Of a stretch of 64,000 nucleotides of DNA, positions 4,081 through 44,295 are shown piece after piece. Made by a program: the position numbers and the translations under genes. Positions within the stretch are counted from its first letter, which is position 1, and each line of letters begins with the position of its first letter. The DNA is taken from the NCBI RefSeq assembly GCF_055900595.2, contig NZ_CM148325.1, one strand, 5' to 3'. The notes below the pieces were generated by a model, which had not been told where the DNA came from, ran no database searches, and was given only the letters and a program-made list of their open reading frames with translations.

Positions 4081-5550
4081 ATGGTTTCCGAAACTAAAAC
4101 CACAGAAGCGCCGGGCTTACGCCGTGAATTAAAGGCGCGTCACCTGACGATGATTGCCATTGGCGGTTCCATCGGTACAGGTCTTTTTGTTGCCTCTGGC
4201 GCAACGATTTCTCAGGCAGGTCCGGGCGGGGCATTGCTCTCGTATATGTTGATTGGCCTGATGGTTTACTTCCTGATGACCAGTCTCGGTGAACTGGCCG
4301 CATATATGCCGGTTTCCGGTTCGTTTGCCACTTACGGTCAGAACTATGTTGAAGAAGGCTTTGGCTTCGCGCTGGGCTGGAACTACTGGTACAACTGGGC
4401 GGTGACTATCGCCGTTGACCTGGTTGCTGCGCAGCTGGTTATGAGCTGGTGGTTCCCGGATACACCCGGTTGGATCTGGAGTGCGCTGTTCCTCGGCGTT
4501 ATCTTCCTGCTGAACTACATTTCGGTCCGTGGCTTTGGTGAAGCAGAATACTGGTTCTCACTGATCAAGGTTACGACGGTTATTGTCTTTATTGTTGTCG
4601 GCGTGCTGATGATTATCGGTATCTTCAAAGGCGCACAGCCTGCGGGCTGGAGCAACTGGACAATCGGCGAAGCACCGTTTGCTGGTGGTTTTGCGGCGAT
4701 GATCGGCGTAGCTATGATTGTCGGCTTCTCTTTCCAGGGAACCGAGCTGATCGGTATTGCTGCAGGCGAGTCCGAAGATCCGGCGAAAAACATTCCACGC
4801 GCGGTACGTCAGGTGTTCTGGCGAATCCTGTTGTTCTATGTGTTCGCGATCCTGATCATCAGCCTGATTATTCCGTACACCGATCCGAGCCTACTGCGTA
4901 ATGATGTGAAAGACATCAGCGTCAGTCCGTTCACCCTGGTATTCCAACACGCGGGTCTGCTCTCTGCGGCGGCGGTGATGAACGCTGTTATTCTGACGGC
5001 GGTGCTGTCAGCGGGTAACTCCGGTATGTATGCGTCTACTCGTATGTTGTACACCCTGGCGTGTGACGGTAAAGCGCCGCGCATTTTCGCTAAATTGTCG
5101 CGTGGTGGCGTGCCGCGTAACGCGCTGTATGCGACGACGGTGATTGCCGGTCTGTGCTTCCTGACCTCGATGTTTGGTAACCAGACGGTATACCTGTGGT
5201 TGCTGAACACCTCTGGTATGACAGGCTTTATTGCCTGGCTGGGGATTGCGATTAGCCACTACCGCTTCCGTCGCGGTTACGTATTGCAGGGACACGACAT
5301 TAACGATCTGCCGTACCGTTCAGGCTTCTTCCCACTGGGGCCGATCTTCGCATTCATTCTGTGTCTGATTATTACTTTGGGCCAGAACTACGAAGCGTTC
5401 CTGAAAGACACCATTGACTGGGGCGGCGTAGCGGCAACATATATTGGTATCCCGCTGTTCCTGATTATCTGGTTCGGATACAAGCTGATTAAAGGAACTC
5501 ACTTCGTACGCTACAGCGAAATGAAGTTCCCGCAGAACGATAAGAAATAA
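4081..5550 (+). CDS. lysP: Lysine-specific permease (APC family)
   Basis: 489 aa ORF MVSETKTTEAPGLRRELKARHLTMIAIGGSIGTGLF...; length and sequence as recalled for LysP. Confidence 0.95.
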   Translation: MVSETKTTEAPGLRRELKARHLTMIAIGGSIGTGLFVASGATISQAGPGGALLSYMLIGLMVYFLMTSLGELAAYMPVSGSFATYGQNYVEEGFGFALGWNYWYNWAVTIAVDLVAAQLVMSWWFPDTPGWIWSALFLGVIFLLNYISVRGFGEAEYWFSLIKVTTVIVFIVVGVLMIIGIFKGAQPAGWSNWTIGEAPFAGGFAAMIGVAMIVGFSFQGTELIGIAAGESEDPAKNIPRAVRQVFWRILLFYVFAILIISLIIPYTDPSLLRNDVKDISVSPFTLVFQHAGLLSAAAVMNAVILTAVLSAGNSGMYASTRMLYTLACDGKAPRIFAKLSRGGVPRNALYATTVIAGLCFLTSMFGNQTVYLWLLNTSGMTGFIAWLGIAISHYRFRRGYVLQGHDINDLPYRSGFFPLGPIFAFILCLIITLGQNYEAFLKDTIDWGGVAATYIGIPLFLIIWFGYKLIKGTHFVRYSEMKFPQNDKK

Positions 5551-20080: not shown

Positions 20081-20092
20081 TGTGAATGTGGG

Positions 20093-20140
20093 TATTGCCG
20101 GATGCGCCGCATCCGGCAATCGGTGCCAAATGCCGGATGC
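20093..20140. repeat. REP-like palindromic element downstream of mglC
   Basis: GCCGGATGCGCCGCATCCGGCAA ... GCCGGATGCG motifs. Confidence 0.7.
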
Positions 20141-20150
20141 GTCTCTGATT

Positions 20151-31108: not shown

Positions 31109-32302
31109 ATGACTAAAGTGACACGCGCAGTAATTGTGGGAGGCGGGATCGGCGGTGCGGCAACTGCGCTGTCACTGGCCCGCCAGGGGATCAAAGTGGT
31201 GCTGCTGGAAAAGGCGCATGAGATCGGTGAGATCGGCGCAGGCATCCAGTTGGGGCCAAACGCGTTTTCGGCGTTGGATAGTCTTGGTGTTGGCGAAATC
31301 GCCCGCCAGCGCGCGGTGTTTACCGATCACATCACCATGATGGATGCGGTGAACGCCGAAGAAGTGGTGCGTATTGAAACCGGGCAGGCCTTTCGTGACC
31401 ATTTCGGCGGCCCTTACGCGGTGATCCATCGCGTTGATATTCATGCCTCGGTATGGGAAGCGGTACTGACGCATCCGGACGTGGAGTATCACACCTCCAC
31501 AAACGTCGTTGATATTCGCGAGACGCCGGACGATGTCACCGTTTTCGACGATCGAGGTAATAGCTGGAGCGGCGATATTTTGATTGGCTGTGATGGCGTG
31601 AAGTCAGTGGTGCGCCAGAGCTTATTAGGCGATGCGCCGCGCGTCACCGGTCATGTGGTCTACCGTGCGGTTATCGATTGTGCGGATATGCCGGAAGATT
31701 TACGTATTAATGCGCCGGTATTGTGGGCGGGTCCGCACTGTCACCTGGTGCATTATCCTTTGCGCGGCGGCAAGCAGTATAACCTGGTGGTGACATTCCA
31801 CAGTCGCCACCAGGAAGAGTGGGGCGTGAAGGATGGCAGTAAAGAGGAAGTGCTCTCTTACTTTGAAGGGATTCACCCCCGTCCGCGCCAGATGCTGGAT
31901 AAACCGACTTCATGGCGACGCTGGTCAACCGCTGACCGTGAACCGGTGGCGAAGTGGGGAACGAAGCGCATAACGCTTGTGGGCGATGCGGCTCATCCGG
32001 TGGCGCAATATATGGCACAAGGTGCCTGTATGGCGCTGGAAGATGCAGTAACGCTGGGTAAGGCGCTGGCGCAGTGTGAGGGTGATGCGGCGCAAGCTTT
32101 TGCGCTGTATGAGTCGGTACGTATTCCGCGTACCGCGCGCATCGTCTGGTCGACCCGTGAAATGGGGCGGGTTTATCACGCCGCAGGGGTAGAACGTCAG
32201 GTACGTAATCTGCTGTGGAAAGGGAAATCGCAGGCAGAGTTTTATCGCGGCATGGAGTGGCTGTACGGCTGGAAAGAAGATAACTGTCTGCAACCACGCT
32301 GA
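31109..32302 (+). CDS. mhbM: 3-hydroxybenzoate 6-hydroxylase (FAD-dependent aromatic monooxygenase)
   Basis: 397 aa; FAD-binding VIVGGGIGGAATALSLARQGIKVVLLEK and GDAAHP motif. Confidence 0.8.
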   Translation: MTKVTRAVIVGGGIGGAATALSLARQGIKVVLLEKAHEIGEIGAGIQLGPNAFSALDSLGVGEIARQRAVFTDHITMMDAVNAEEVVRIETGQAFRDHFGGPYAVIHRVDIHASVWEAVLTHPDVEYHTSTNVVDIRETPDDVTVFDDRGNSWSGDILIGCDGVKSVVRQSLLGDAPRVTGHVVYRAVIDCADMPEDLRINAPVLWAGPHCHLVHYPLRGGKQYNLVVTFHSRHQEEWGVKDGSKEEVLSYFEGIHPRPRQMLDKPTSWRRWSTADREPVAKWGTKRITLVGDAAHPVAQYMAQGACMALEDAVTLGKALAQCEGDAAQAFALYESVRIPRTARIVWSTREMGRVYHAAGVERQVRNLLWKGKSQAEFYRGMEWLYGWKEDNCLQPR

Positions 32303-32317
32303 GTACTTCTTACCCAA

Positions 32318-32378
32318 TCAGGTGCACGGACGGTCCCCTCGCCCCTTTGGGGAGAGGGTTAGGGTGAGGGGAAAAATC
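32318..32378. repeat. GC-rich imperfect palindromic repeat (BoxC-like)
   Basis: CCCCTCGCCCCTTTGGGGAGAGGGTTAGGGTGAGGGG; family assignment from memory only. Confidence 0.35.
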
Positions 32379-32420
32379 TTGCCCGAATTAATCAGTAAGT
32401 CAGTTTGTCTGCAAACACCA

Positions 32421-32448
32421 GAGGCGCTAACATAGCGCCTCATTTTTG
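32421..32448 (+). terminator. Hairpin plus T-run (terminator of mhb operon and/or IS200 left-end read-through terminator)
   Basis: GAGGCGCT-AACAT-AGCGCCTC followed by ATTTTTG. Confidence 0.65.
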
Positions 32449-32590
32449 TGCACAGAAAACCCCCAGCTAGGCTGGGGGTTCCGGAAAGCTTTCAGCTTTG
32501 AGCCAGTTATTAAAACCCCTTTTGATTTGTTAAAACACCTTGCGGTCTGGCAACTGCAAGTGTCAAACAAGAAATCAAAAGGGGGTCCCA

Positions 32591-33049
32591 ATGGGGGACG
32601 AAAAGAGCTTAGCGCACACCCGCTGGAACTGTAAATATCACATAGTTTTTGCGCCGAAATACCGAAGACTGGCGTTTTACGGAGAGAAGCGTAGGGCGAT
32701 AGGCAGTATTTTGAGAAAGCTGTGTGAGTGGAAAAGCGTACGGATTCTGGAAGCAGAGTGCTGCGCAGATCATATCCATATGCTTGTGGAAATCCCACCC
32801 AAAATGAGCGTATCCGGCTTTATGGGATATCTGAAAGGGAAAAGCAGTCTGATGCTTTACGAGCAGTTTGGGGATTTGAAATTCAAATACAGAAACAGGG
32901 AGTTCTGGTGCCGAGGGTACTATGTCGATACGGTGGGTAAGAACACGGCGAAGATACAGGACTACATAAAGCACCAGCTTGAAGAGGATAAAATGGGGGA
33001 GCAGTTATCGATTCCATATCCGGGCAGCCCGTTTACGGGCCGTAAGTAA
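32591..33049 (+). CDS. tnpA: IS200 transposase TnpA (HUH/Y1)
   Basis: MGDEKSLAHTRWNCKYHIVFAPKYRRLAFYGEKRRAIGSILRKLCEWKSVRILEAECCADHIHMLVEIPPK...; ORF track start lies further upstream. Confidence 0.9.
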   Translation: MGDEKSLAHTRWNCKYHIVFAPKYRRLAFYGEKRRAIGSILRKLCEWKSVRILEAECCADHIHMLVEIPPKMSVSGFMGYLKGKSSLMLYEQFGDLKFKYRNREFWCRGYYVDTVGKNTAKIQDYIKHQLEEDKMGEQLSIPYPGSPFTGRK

Positions 33050-33173
33050 CGAAGTTGAATGCAAATGTCAGATCGTATGCGCCTGTTAGGGCACGGCTGG
33101 TAACAGAGCCTTACAGGCGCATTTGAAAAACCTCCGGCTATGCCGGAGGATATTTATTTTTGCGGGTGATGAT

Positions 33174-34121
33174 ATGCGTGTGTTACTGGCACCGATGGAG
33201 GGTGTACTCGACTCTCTGGTGCGTGAATTGCTGACCGAAGTTAACGACTACGATCTGTGCATCACCGAGTTTGTCCGCGTGGTGGATCAACTGCTGCCGG
33301 TAAAAGTTTTTCATCGCATTTGCCCGGAGCTACAAAACGCCAGCCGAACGCCATCCGGTACGCTGGTGCGCGTGCAATTGCTGGGGCAGTTCCCACAATG
33401 GCTGGCAGAGAACGCCGCCCGTGCGGTGGAGTTAGGTTCCTGGGGTGTGGATCTTAATTGCGGCTGTCCGTCGAAAACGGTTAACGGTAGCGGCGGCGGG
33501 GCGACACTACTCAAAGATCCTGAACTCATCTACCAGGGTGCAAAAGCGATGCGTGAAGTTGTACCGGCGCATTTGCCCGTCAGTGTGAAAGTGCGTCTGG
33601 GCTGGGACAGCGGTGAGAAGAAATTTGAAATCGCCGATGCGGTTCAACAGGCTGGCGCTACGGAGTTGGTGGTGCATGGGCGGACAAAAGAGCAGGGGTA
33701 CCGCGCGGAGCATATTGACTGGCAGGCGATTGGCGAGATTCGCCAACGGCTGAATATTCCGGTGATTGCCAACGGTGAAATCTGGGACTGGCAGAGCGCG
33801 CAACAGTGTATGGCGATCAGCGGCTGTGACGCGGTGATGATTGGTCGCGGAGCGCTCAATATTCCCAATCTGAGCCGAGTGGTAAAATATAACGAACCGC
33901 GAATGCCGTGGCCGGAGGTGGTTGCTTTGCTACAAAAATATACCCGTCTGGAAAAGCAGGGCGATACTGGGTTATATCACGTTGCGCGGATTAAACAGTG
34001 GTTGAGTTATTTGCGTAAAGAATACGATGAAGCAACGGAATTATTTCAGCATGTTCGGGTGTTGAATAATTCCCTTGATATTGCAAGGGCTATTCAGACC
34101 ATTGATATCGAGAAACTCTAA
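33174..34121 (+). CDS. dusC: tRNA-dihydrouridine synthase C
   Basis: [36 protein letters not shown]... (315 aa from ATG 33174); Dus family. Confidence 0.92.
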
Positions 34122-34493
34122 GAAACCATAGTGATGTTTTTTGACAATGTGTTAGCTCTTTATCAATAGGCCGCACGGTTGTTTGGTGGCGTCAAAATCG
34201 CCGAGGCGTTCCCTGAAGGCCGGGGCAGCCCATATGGATGTGGGCTGAGGGCGCGTTTTACAGGGATGTTACCTCGCGCCCGACCCGGTAGCCGTAAGGG
34301 ATAAGCCGAGGGCACCGCGCAGCGGCGATTTTGTTCGCCAGAGCCCGGGGGTGCAGGGGGCGGCGGCGACTGGTCGCCCCCTGCGCGCTCCTTGCGCTAG
34401 TGATTATATGAAGCAATGCACATGACAGGAGCGCAACAGGATGAGAGACTGAAATATTCTCGTTATTTTCGGATCTGATGACGTTAATTAATT

Positions 34494-34577
34494 TTAAAAT
34501 ATCATCTTAAATACGCCAGTCACCACCAGTAGTCCAATCAGGAAAATAATCAATACAGCCCAGAGTATAATTTTCAT
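34494..34577 (-). CDS. yohP: Small membrane protein YohP (27 aa)
   Basis: Minus-strand ATG..TAA encodes MKIILWAVLIIFLIGLLVVTGVFKMIF, matching the recalled YohP sequence; below ORF-track size cutoff. Confidence 0.85.
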   Translation of the reverse strand: MKIILWAVLIIFLIGLLVVTGVFKMIF

Positions 34578-34800
34578 TGGCGTTCCTTTATTTGTGAGTG
34601 TCGAATAAGTATAGGAAAAAACGAAGCCCTTTGCCGTTACTCATAAGTGATTAAGATAAATCGGAGAATATCATTCACTTACTGTATATTTTTCTGAATA
34701 TGTCGTTTTATTGCCACTGATGTATTGCCACGCGAAACTAAAAAATATATTGCATCACACGGTAATCTCCGCGCACCTTTTCTTACCTGACTATTCCTCC

Positions 34801-36237
34801 ATGAATCGTGATTCCTTTTACCCAGCCATCGCCTGTTTTCCTCTGTTACTGATGCTGGCCGGGTGTGCGCCTATGCATGAAACCCGCCAGGCGTTAAGCC
34901 AGCAAACACCCGCTGCGCAAGTTGACACCGCATTACCTACGGCGCTGAAAAATGGTTGGCCAGACAGCCAATGGTGGCTGGAGTATCACGATAATCAACT
35001 CACTTCATTAATTAACTATGCACTGCAGAACGCACCGGATATGCAGGTGGCTGAACAGCGCATTCAGCTGGCTGAAGCCCAGGCGAAGGCAGTTGCCACT
35101 CAGGATGGCCCTCAGATCGATTTTTCTGCGGATATGGAGCGGCAAAAAATGTCGGCAGAAGGGCTAATGGGGCCGTTTGCTCTGAACGATCCTGCCGCAG
35201 GTACGACCGGTCCGTGGTACACCAACGGTACTTTTGGCTTAACGGCGGGCTGGCATCTCGATATCTGGGGAAAGAATCGGGCGGAGGTAACTGCTCGCCT
35301 GGGTACGGTTAAAGCACGAGCGGCGGAACGCGAGCAAACCCGCCAATTGCTGGCTGGCAGCGTTGCCCGCCTTTACTGGGAGTGGCAAACCCAGGCAGCG
35401 TTAAACACTGTTTTGCAGCAAATCGAAAAAGAGCAGAACACCATTATCGCGACCGATCGCCAGCTATATCAGAACGGGATTACTTCTTCAGTTGAAGGTG
35501 TGGAAACCGATATTAATGCCAGCAAGACCCGGCAGCAGCTCAACGATGTCGTGGGAAAAATGAAAATTATTGAGGCACGGTTAAGCGCACTTACAAATCA
35601 CCAGATAAAGTCATTGAAGCTTAAACCGGTTGAGTTGCCGAAAGTGGCAAGTCAGCTTCCTGATGAACTGGGGTATTCATTGCTGGCACGGCGGGCAGAT
35701 TTGCAGGCAGCGCATTGGTACGTTGAGTCATCGTTAAGCACCATTGATGCGGCAAAAGCGGCATTTTACCCTGACATCAACCTGATGGCCTTCCTGCAAC
35801 AGGATGCGTTGCACTTAAGCGATTTGTTCCGTCATTCCGCGCAGCAAATGGGCGTTACGGCAGGCCTGACGCTACCCATTTTCGATAGTGGTCGTCTTAA
35901 CGCCAACCTCGATATTGCAAAAGCCGAAAGCAACTTGTCTATCGCCAGCTACAACAAAGCGGTGGTTGAAGCGGTGAATGACGTGGCGCGGGCAGCCAGT
36001 CAGGTTCAGACGCTGGTGGAGAAAAACCAGCATCAGGCGCAAATTGAGCGCGATGCCTTGCGTGTGGTAGGTCTTGCGCAGGCCCGCTTTAACGCGGGTA
36101 TCATTGCTGGTTCCCGCGTCAGCGAAGCCAGGATCCCGGCGCTGCGTGAGCGGGCCAATGGCCTGTTATTGCAAGGGCAGTGGCTGGATGCCTCCATTCA
36201 ACTCACTGGTGCGTTGGGCGGGGGGTACAAACGCTGA
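34801..36237 (+). CDS. mdtQ: Outer-membrane efflux lipoprotein (NodT/OprM family); uninterrupted here
   Basis: Start taken at MNRDSFYPAIACFPLLLMLAGC (lipobox LAGC); weak RBS so start uncertain; ORF track starts at TTG 34711. Confidence 0.75.
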   Translation: MNRDSFYPAIACFPLLLMLAGCAPMHETRQALSQQTPAAQVDTALPTALKNGWPDSQWWLEYHDNQLTSLINYALQNAPDMQVAEQRIQLAEAQAKAVATQDGPQIDFSADMERQKMSAEGLMGPFALNDPAAGTTGPWYTNGTFGLTAGWHLDIWGKNRAEVTARLGTVKARAAEREQTRQLLAGSVARLYWEWQTQAALNTVLQQIEKEQNTIIATDRQLYQNGITSSVEGVETDINASKTRQQLNDVVGKMKIIEARLSALTNHQIKSLKLKPVELPKVASQLPDELGYSLLARRADLQAAHWYVESSLSTIDAAKAAFYPDINLMAFLQQDALHLSDLFRHSAQQMGVTAGLTLPIFDSGRLNANLDIAKAESNLSIASYNKAVVEAVNDVARAASQVQTLVEKNQHQAQIERDALRVVGLAQARFNAGIIAGSRVSEARIPALRERANGLLLQGQWLDASIQLTGALGGGYKR

Positions 36238-37051: not shown

Positions 37052-37091
37052 CACAGTGAGGTGCGTGGTTATTTCAATGGGTAATATTTGG

Positions 37092-37175
37092 TAGGCATGA
37101 TAAGACGTGCAAGCGTCGCATCAGGCATGGTGCGACGGATGTCGGATGCGGCGCAAACCGCCTTATCCGAGGCAA
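37092..37175. repeat. REP-like palindromic elements between yohF and yohD
   Basis: GCATCAGGCATGGTGCGACGGATGTCGGATGCGGCGCAAACCGCCTTATCCGAGGC. Confidence 0.65.
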
Positions 37176-39624: not shown

Positions 39625-39795
39625 GTAGGCAGGATAAGGCGTTTACGCCGCATCAGGCATTCGGAGCACAATGCCTGATGCGATGCTTGCGCATCTTATC
39701 AGGCCTACAAACGTGACGCGTCCGTAGGCAGGATAAGGCGTTCACGCCGCATCCGGCATTCGGTGCACGATGCCTGATGCGATGCTTCTATTTGC
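39625..39795. repeat. Cluster of REP elements (BIME-like) between pbpG and dld
   Basis: Repeated GCCTGATGCGATGCTT / GGCAGGATAAGGCGTTTACGCCGCATC units in alternating orientation. Confidence 0.85.
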
Positions 39796-44029: not shown

Positions 44030-44160
44030 AGTCAGGGCGCGACGTCTGCGCCCTTTGCCTGATGCGTTGCGCTTATCAGGCCTTCAGGGGTTTTTAACCT
44101 CTTGAATTTTCGCTGTTTGTAGGCTGGATAAGGCGTTTACGCCGCATCCGGCAAGAAACG
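44030..44160. repeat. Terminator hairpin plus REP elements downstream of bglX
   Basis: GGGCGCGACGTCTGCGCCC hairpin; CCTGATGCGTTGCGCTTATCAGGCC; GTAGGCTGGATAAGGCGTTTACGCCGCATCCGGCA. Confidence 0.8.
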
Positions 44161-44295
44161 ACGGGCAAAATATGCCCTTTAAGTATTTATCTGATTCTGC
44201 AACTGAATCCTTCCGCTCAGGCTAACCCCGCCATTATCAACTATGCTTTTCTCTTAATTCGCTGAAAACAACAGTAAAAGAATGAGGAAAGCATC

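Follow-up and report, generated by a model that had tools for sequence, protein, structure and literature searches.

We analyzed a 64,000-nucleotide stretch of contig NZ_CM148325.1 (assembly GCF_055900595.2), referred to here as the window, and examined the spacer between dusC and yohP. The dusC gene occupies positions 33171-34121 on the + strand, with its stop at 34121 (NCBIfam equivalog NF007838, 692.8 bits), while yohP lies convergently downstream at 34494-34577 on the - strand (NCBIfam equivalog NF011345, 67.3 bits). The position of dusC identifies the locus and tells in which direction the replication fork travels. Beyond yohP, mdtQ (34801-36237) is intact and encodes 478 aa with a full-length match to NF008524 (1018 bits), unlike its counterpart in K-12 MG1655, which is an annotated pseudogene. 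Immediately upstream of dusC we found an IS200 copy (32458-33049), in which the 5' region RNA matched Rfam STnc490 at 32458-32581 (146 bits) and the transposase ORF (32591-33049) matched NCBIfam transpos_IS200. The same side of dusC holds yohJ/yohK in K-12 and gentisate-pathway genes in strain Z0117EC0005. This IS200 is unrelated to the spacer sequence.

The preliminary description of the spacer had placed a GC-rich, hairpin-dense segment at 34140-34450. Its location was right and its extent slightly offset, with the true unit running from about 34165 to 34440/34450. In 100-nt windows, GC content was 0.66-0.73 across 34200-34400 as against 0.31-0.39 in the flanks; the 224-bp core at 34179-34402 had 67% GC, the unit at 34165-34437 63.7% and the whole window 50.1%, so that the segment was indeed strongly GC-rich (64-67% against 50% window-wide). 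The longest ORFs overlapping 34140-34450 measured 52, 50 and 41 aa, in line with the earlier statement that none reaches 60 aa, and none of these three had a Pfam match. Neither the RefSeq/PGAP records nor the MG1655 record carried an annotated feature at the dusC-yohP repeat.

When positions 34101-34500 were compared by BLAST with the yohP-dusC spacer of K-12, the two were 98.0% identical over 400 bp. The K-12 spacer holds one of the two Replication Risk Sequences (RRS), GC-rich repeats of 222 bp that were described close to lysO and dusC, each about 650 kb from dif on its own side (PMC10287960, PMC11194060). The lysO RRS is inverted relative to the dusC copy and lies ~1.3 Mb from it, symmetrically about dif (Pham et al. 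2023/2024), and we found this second K-12 copy, in lysO-aqpZ, to be 93% identical. Pham et al. defined RRS-dusC as the segment 58-281 bp downstream of dusC (PMC11194060 Methods), which corresponds to 34179-34402 (+) in the window. The segment at that position had the 67% GC given above and carried a G-quadruplex (G4) motif on one strand only. The published G4-forming motif GGGGGTGCAGGGGGCGGCGG (PMC11194060) matched exactly at 34347-34366 (+). It occurred once in the window, had no match elsewhere with up to two mismatches, and was matched in 0 of 100 shuffles. The published primer RRS-1F also matched exactly, at 34265. The locus, the coordinates relative to dusC, the G4 motif, the primer site, the GC content and the orientation are all shared with RRS-dusC, with no substantive difference between the two: the strain of the window carries the K-12 element.

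These repeats carry an older name, TRIP1, from a 1999 catalogue (Rudd 1999), as noted in PMC11194060. Li et al. 2024 (PMC10888264) gave K-12 TRIP1c as 2229122-2229394 of NC_000913.3, which maps to a 273-bp unit at 34165-34437 (+), starting 44 bp past the dusC stop. The same source listed five E. coli TRIP1 types, namely a (aqpZ-ybjE), b (putP-ycdN), c (yohI-yohG), d (alx-sstT) and e (copA-ybaP), where yohI and yohG are synonyms of dusC and mdtQ. It described TRIP1a/b/c of K-12 as 146-273 bp long, with 62-65% GC and a stable predicted "double-Y" structure. The window unit is homologous to K-12 TRIP1c, has a GC content within that range and lies between dusC and mdtQ; its predicted structure, a multi-branched domain followed by two terminal hairpins and backed by covariation, agrees with the double-Y. 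Paralogues in aqpZ-lysO (TRIP1a) and alx-sstT (TRIP1d) were found independently, and both directions occurred at the a and c loci, as in that list. Paralogous copies, for which BLASTN had been proposed as a check, thus lie in aqpZ-lysO and alx-sstT and, by the published list, also in putP-efeU and copA-ybaP. Its sequence identifies the segment as RRS-dusC of E. coli and as the same element as TRIP1c. The earlier suggestion of a degenerate repeat family was therefore correct as to a repeat family and wrong as to "degenerate", as the family is the named TRIP1/RRS. The element is real and already known, having been catalogued in 1999 and functionally characterised in 2023-2026.

An nhmmer profile built from the unit alignment described below was used to determine the extent of the family and to search for copies. 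It matched 34181-34450 (+) with E=4e-76 over profile positions 18-286, and this was the only TRIP1/RRS copy in the 64-kb window. In the MFE and centroid structures, a long-range closing helix (34188-34339, +) was predicted to pair GGCGTCAAAATCGCCG (34188-34203) with CGGCGATTTTGTTCGCC (34323-34339) and thereby to enclose the multi-branched domain; compensatory changes were present in the corresponding alignment helices 1-2. A hairpin at 34226-34247 (+) pairs CAGCCCA with TGGGCTG around ATGGATG (a motif conserved by construction of our collection, see below), and in this helix, helix 5, both sides had changed in 6 of 9 pairs. The MFE and centroid folds also contained a hairpin at 34249-34281 (+) formed by GGGCGCG (34249) and CGCGCCC (34275), which extends by one pair the stem GGCGCG...CGCGCC pointed out earlier. 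The G-rich hairpin that had been singled out as a perfect stem, GCAGGGGGCG (34353) and CGCCCCCTGC (34375) around a 12-nt loop at 34353-34384 (+), was present at exactly those positions and, as helix 11, had both-side changes in 6 of 9 pairs. The G4 motif at 34347-34366 overlaps the 5' arm of this hairpin. Finally, a 3' hairpin at 34385-34434 (+) joins GCGCTCC (34385) to GGAGCGC (34428); this hairpin belongs to TRIP1c but is not part of the 222-bp RRS core. The predicted layout is thus a multi-branched domain, then the G-rich hairpin, then the 3' hairpin. The MFE of 34171-34440 was lower than that of 200 out of 200 dinucleotide shuffles on both strands, whether folded as DNA (z-scores -5.63 for the + strand and -5.23 for the - strand) or as RNA (-4.95 and -3.61, respectively). 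Since the MFE beat every shuffle, the density of hairpins in the segment is not a chance feature.

By megablast, 5425 of the 5426 complete E. coli genomes searched contained the segment, at a median of 3 and up to 8 places per genome; over the whole analysis the number of places ranged from 1 to 8-9. Paralogues in E. coli were seen between lysO and aqpZ and, in some strains, also between alx and sstT. In K-12, the alx-sstT spacer contained a BoxC-like repeat (CCCTCTCCC...GGGAGAGGG...GGGTGAGGG) instead of TRIP1d (locus L009, 4550-4940, versus locus L004, 2925-3539), so that this one spacer is occupied by different repeat families in different strains; the BoxC-like sequence did not align with the unit. 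Other repeats were found next to units in other genera. Klebsiella units were usually preceded by a REP-like palindrome, and Enterobacter units were followed by a BoxC-like sequence resembling the one in K-12 alx-sstT. A K. pneumoniae record filed as a plasmid (CP125156.1, 5.37 Mb) had the unit at 13 places, at one of which two units stood in tandem, 437 bp apart (L010, 2047-2332 and 2484-2769). An 88-kb E. coli plasmid, pMTY11352_3 (NZ_CP134387.1, L007), carried the chromosomal block poxB-hcr-hcp-lysO-aqpZ-ybjD-ybjX-macA, with a TRIP1a (5001-5172) that matched the family profile in its 3' part only, over ~170 bp at profile positions 117-287.

At most Citrobacter loci we observed two divergent units arranged head-to-head around an AT-rich spacer of ~70 bp (L012, 2140-2753; also L017, L023, L027, L028, L035, L037, L039, L044 and L050), and this composite recurred at several loci per genome. 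Each DNA strand thereby carries the G-rich strand of one unit. Three contigs from metagenome-assembled genomes labelled Desulfacinum (L021), "Proteobacteria bacterium" (L022) and Sporobacter termitidis (L045) held units of the Klebsiella or E. coli type, which likely stem from contamination or mis-binning. On L022, a partial inverted second unit lay 290 bp from the full one.

Scanning representative genomes with an exact pattern yielded 47 loci, 46 of which were family members, from Citrobacter, Enterobacter, Klebsiella, Pseudocitrobacter and Escherichia together with the three oddly labelled contigs; the remaining one (L042) was a chance match. Conservation of AAGGCCGGG, ATGGATG and AGGG in this collection is by construction, since they belong to the exact pattern used to collect it. 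We aligned 55 distinct units from Escherichia, Klebsiella, Citrobacter and Enterobacter with MAFFT, so that the alignment was fitted to no structure, and derived a consensus with RNAalifold. The consensus had 55 pairs, of which 26 showed changes on both sides; most of these compensatory changes distinguish subfamilies at genus level, so that the number of independent events is below the number of cells. The proportion of paired cells was 98.5%, as compared to 87.3% after shuffling and 36-48% when the 3' partners were slid. In the slid-partner controls only 2-7 pairs had both-side changes, and the covariation score was 0.04-0.09 as against 0.388 for the true pairing. The arms of the G-rich hairpin differed throughout between subfamilies and still paired (GCAGGGGGCG/CGCCCCCTGC versus GTAAAGGGCG/CGCCCTTTAC). 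Similarly, the 3' hairpin (helix 12) had changed from GCGCTCC/GGAGCGC to CGTTCAC/GTGAACG in Citrobacter and Enterobacter with pairing kept. Wobble pairs read on the G-rich strand comprised 122 G:T cells as against 14 A:C cells, which points to the G-rich strand as the selected single strand. The covariation analysis across Enterobacteriaceae that had been proposed as a check on the segment thus gave a strong result, and the compensatory evolution seen in these aligned units shows that the fold is under selection.

We compared the G-rich hairpin with the propensity to form a G4. The maximum G4Hunter score reached 1.76-2.1 in units from Escherichia and Klebsiella but stayed at 0.88-1.2 in most of those from Citrobacter and Enterobacter, several of which had just 2-3 G-runs in the G-rich arm. 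Across the genera the hairpin is preserved, whereas the propensity to form a G4 is lower in Citrobacter and Enterobacter. The 5' arm of the strongest hairpin coincides with the published "G4 site", so that the block attributed to this site may be due to the hairpin in part or altogether.

The orientation of the unit was examined in the window, in E. coli and across the genera. The G-rich strand and dusC share the + strand of the window, as they do in K-12, where the G4 strand is the lagging-strand template (PMC11194060). The flanks of the unit, 62.9 kb in all, had a GC skew of +0.038 on the + strand (z=6.8). The shared strand and the positive flank skew suggest that the lagging strand is templated by the G-rich strand in the window as well. 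Queries specific to each spacer indicated that the dusC allele was of the window type in 3310 E. coli genomes and inverted in 2000 (37%), for instance in E. coli W and O157:H7, and that the lysO allele was of the K-12 type in 4027 genomes and inverted in 896, with O157 again among the latter. Li et al. counted 2952 forward and 2789 reverse TRIP1c copies (PMC10888264), so the natural inverted alleles are no new finding. At both loci, alleles of opposite orientation were ~12% divergent and had different adjacent flanks, which indicates that the two forms are old alleles rather than flips; an invertible DNA switch was rejected on the same grounds. According to the RRS literature, the RecA/SSB peak seen in vivo was lost when RRS was inverted experimentally. 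The natural inversion sits uneasily with that loss and better with the in vitro result of 2026 given below. Across genera, the GC skew of the flanks relative to the unit was positive at 18 loci and negative at 28, and by this noisy proxy there was no consistent rule that places the G-rich strand on the lagging template.

In K-12, each RRS marks the start of a RecA/SSB peak that covers ~2 kb of the lagging-strand template; deletion of RRS removes these peaks, and an ectopic RRS with its G-rich strand as the lagging template creates new ones (Pham et al., PMC10287960, PMC11194060). Pol I, II and IV arrest at the "G4 site"/hairpin on the G-rich strand (RRS literature), and both RRS copies could be deleted from K-12 only with a compensating 200-kb amplification (PMC11194060). 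In single-molecule assays, a gap formed at nearly every encounter in the native orientation and in ~66% of encounters in the opposite one, where a weaker structure on the C-rich strand was responsible (Kusi-Appauh et al., bioRxiv 2026, 10.64898/2026.06.16.732529). The published experimental reading is one of a single-stranded-DNA structure that arises during replication, which was not among the options of the preliminary description (a structured RNA, a degenerate repeat family or a gene remnant).

RRS-dusC/TRIP1c acting through a single-strand fold at the time of replication is, in our view, very probably the best explanation overall. As the fork unwinds the region, the G-rich strand (+ in the window), being the lagging-strand template, would briefly become single-stranded and would fold very stably into a G4, GC hairpins or both. 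This fold would stop the lagging-strand polymerase, which would restart at the next primer and leave a gap of ~0.7-2 kb coated by SSB and RecA. Such gaps have been proposed to act like valves that relieve topological stress close to the Ter macrodomain borders. Counting against this explanation, copies are dispersed beyond the two Ter flanks, with up to 8-9 places in E. coli and 13 in the K. pneumoniae record. Being 98% identical to the K-12 copy and in the same orientation, the window copy would be expected to behave like it. The strong fold predicted for the single-stranded DNA (z -5.6) is consistent with gap triggering by RRS, and we infer that the covarying hairpins, beyond the G4 alone, form the obstacle. 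Our cross-genus comparisons and orientation data fit the 2026 report that the C-rich strand triggers gaps too. The only other programmed gap-forming element, according to the RRS authors, is the pilE G4 of Neisseria gonorrhoeae (PMC11194060; 10.64898/2026.06.16.732529). Both are G-rich, fold on one template strand and are associated with a gap or nick at replication. The pilE element, however, is unrelated in sequence, short, made of a G4 only and devoted to pilin antigenic variation, whereas RRS is a multi-helix unit of ~270 bp with covarying hairpins.

A precise, covarying multi-helix fold seems to exceed what a simple roadblock needs. We therefore considered whether selection acts on a specific ~270-nt multi-helix fold of the G-rich strand that goes beyond a G4 roadblock and is read by a factor or acts as RNA, so that the gap is one consequence among others. 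The reading is prompted by the 26 covarying pairs, the hairpin kept despite loss of G4 and the head-to-head units of Citrobacter. We regard it as tentative and, on balance, rather unlikely.

Alternatively, the unit could first and foremost encode a structured non-coding RNA, or belong to the transcripts of its neighbours as a structured part, with the replication gap as a side effect. The strong covariation across the four genera agrees with such an RNA, as do the column pairs 64/156 and 209/242, at which U:G was the commonest combination, and the excess of G:U over A:C (122:14 cells), a pattern typical of RNA helices. Folded as RNA, the + strand did better than the - strand (z -4.95 against -3.61), the Citrobacter units diverge from a common AT-rich spacer of ~70 bp as divergent genes would, and transcription is suggested by Li et al. 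too (PMC10888264). G:T wobble and strand asymmetry are, however, equally expected for a selected single-stranded-DNA fold of the G-rich strand. The Rfam scan proposed at the outset, run over 32000-35500 at E<=10, gave no family inside the unit (34165-34410), and a consensus scan beside the unit found neither a sigma-70 promoter nor an intrinsic terminator. An AgvB-like Rfam match at 34411-34471 on the - strand (22.9 bits against a gathering score of 56, E 0.31) was taken as chance. Upstream of the unit an AT-rich box was loosely common between genera, and the sequence there was otherwise unconserved. The orientation of the unit to neighbouring genes, moreover, varied by strain and locus. An RNA as the primary function thus appears quite improbable.

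About as doubtful to us is the proposal of a selfish or neutral intergenic repeat that spreads by recombination, spacer exchange or mobilisation and affects replication only incidentally. Several of the observations above are of the kind expected for such a repeat: the variable copy number (1 to 8-9 per E. coli genome, 13 in the K. pneumoniae record), the strain-specific presence in alx-sstT with a BoxC-like repeat in its place in K-12, the occurrence of both orientations at one locus with 12% divergence and different flanks, and the neighbouring REP-like repeats of Klebsiella and BoxC-like repeats of Enterobacter. Recombination between TRIP1a and TRIP1c has also been reported to produce 1.3-Mb inversions (PMC10888264). 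On the other hand, the compensatory evolution amounts to purifying selection on the fold, the unit is near-universal (5425 of 5426 genomes), and K-12 needs at least one copy or else the 200-kb amplification that compensates for the loss (PMC11194060). At the dusC, lysO and alx junctions, a small number inspected by eye, we saw no terminal inverted repeats, target-site duplications or transposase; the flanks of alternative alleles differed there as well. Derivation from a MITE or an insertion sequence (IS200/IS605, an IS110 bridge-RNA region, a retron or an omega-RNA) found no support at these few junctions, which showed no terminal repeats, duplications or associated genes.

A cis-acting element of the flanking transcripts, either a stabiliser or terminator in the 3' UTR of dusC/yohP or a leader whose Shine-Dalgarno sequence is sequestered, is very unlikely. 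The unit does begin 44 bp past dusC with no intrinsic terminator in between, and GCGCTCC (34385) can pair with GGAGCGC (34428), with an ATG 8 nt further on. However, the ORFs that follow the ATG are unconserved (MRD, MMNQHITTS and MLNTHIELKIPL, each ending in a stop), and the "Shine-Dalgarno" strand reads GTGAACG in Citrobacter and Enterobacter, paired with CGTTCAC. Since this strand changes with its helix partner, the GGAG is not a ribosome-binding site, and the leader idea (AGGAGCGC at 34428, then ATG) was rejected. The same unit, moreover, lies next to unrelated genes in sense or antisense and on either side of them.

REP elements are single imperfect palindromes of ~35 bp, present in hundreds of copies that are usually clustered. 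Palindromes of the REP/BIME type (GCCGGATG...CATCCGGC) lie at 20084-20147, 37088-37168, 39625-39788 and 44119-44182 and were the sole repeat families detected by the repeat search of the window; they are unrelated to the unit. REP/BIME sequences and their naRNA products share with the unit a GC-rich, palindromic, intergenic nature, dispersal in Enterobacteriaceae and proposed roles in chromosome organisation, but the unit is ~270 bp long, occurs in 1-13 copies and has no sequence in common with the REP families of the window. A decayed protein-coding gene, or membership of the REP/BIME, BoxC or ERIC families, has next to no chance of being right, although the segment is intergenic, GC-rich and palindrome-rich as REP/BIME are: its ORFs of at most 52 aa have no Pfam match and its substitutions are compensatory and not codon-like, which disposes of the gene remnant put forward earlier; it is multi-branched; the REP families (20084, 37088, 39625, 39724 and 44119) exclude it and it contains no such palindrome, just as the preliminary description had held in calling it no canonical REP; and the BoxC-like sequence of K-12 does not align with it.

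The discovery value of the segment is small, since the element was already catalogued and functionally characterised. Our main practical point concerns annotation: the records list no feature here, so scans of the sequence will find the element again. Beyond the published work, the cross-genus covariation, the hairpin kept despite the loss of G4 and the head-to-head pairs of Citrobacter make a modest addition. The TRIP1 study of Li et al. (PMC10888264) stays within E. coli and uses single-sequence RNAfold; a cross-genus alignment, covariation counts and the Citrobacter pairs do not appear in the part of it drawn on here. The structural conservation across genera should be of interest to researchers working on RRS. 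Taken together, the covarying hairpins, the weaker G4 and the unconserved orientation argue for treating hairpins and G4 separately, and the comparative data bear both on what blocks the polymerase and on what selection acts on. Chromosomal single-stranded-DNA structures with covariation support are rare, and the fold would be one of them if it acts as DNA.
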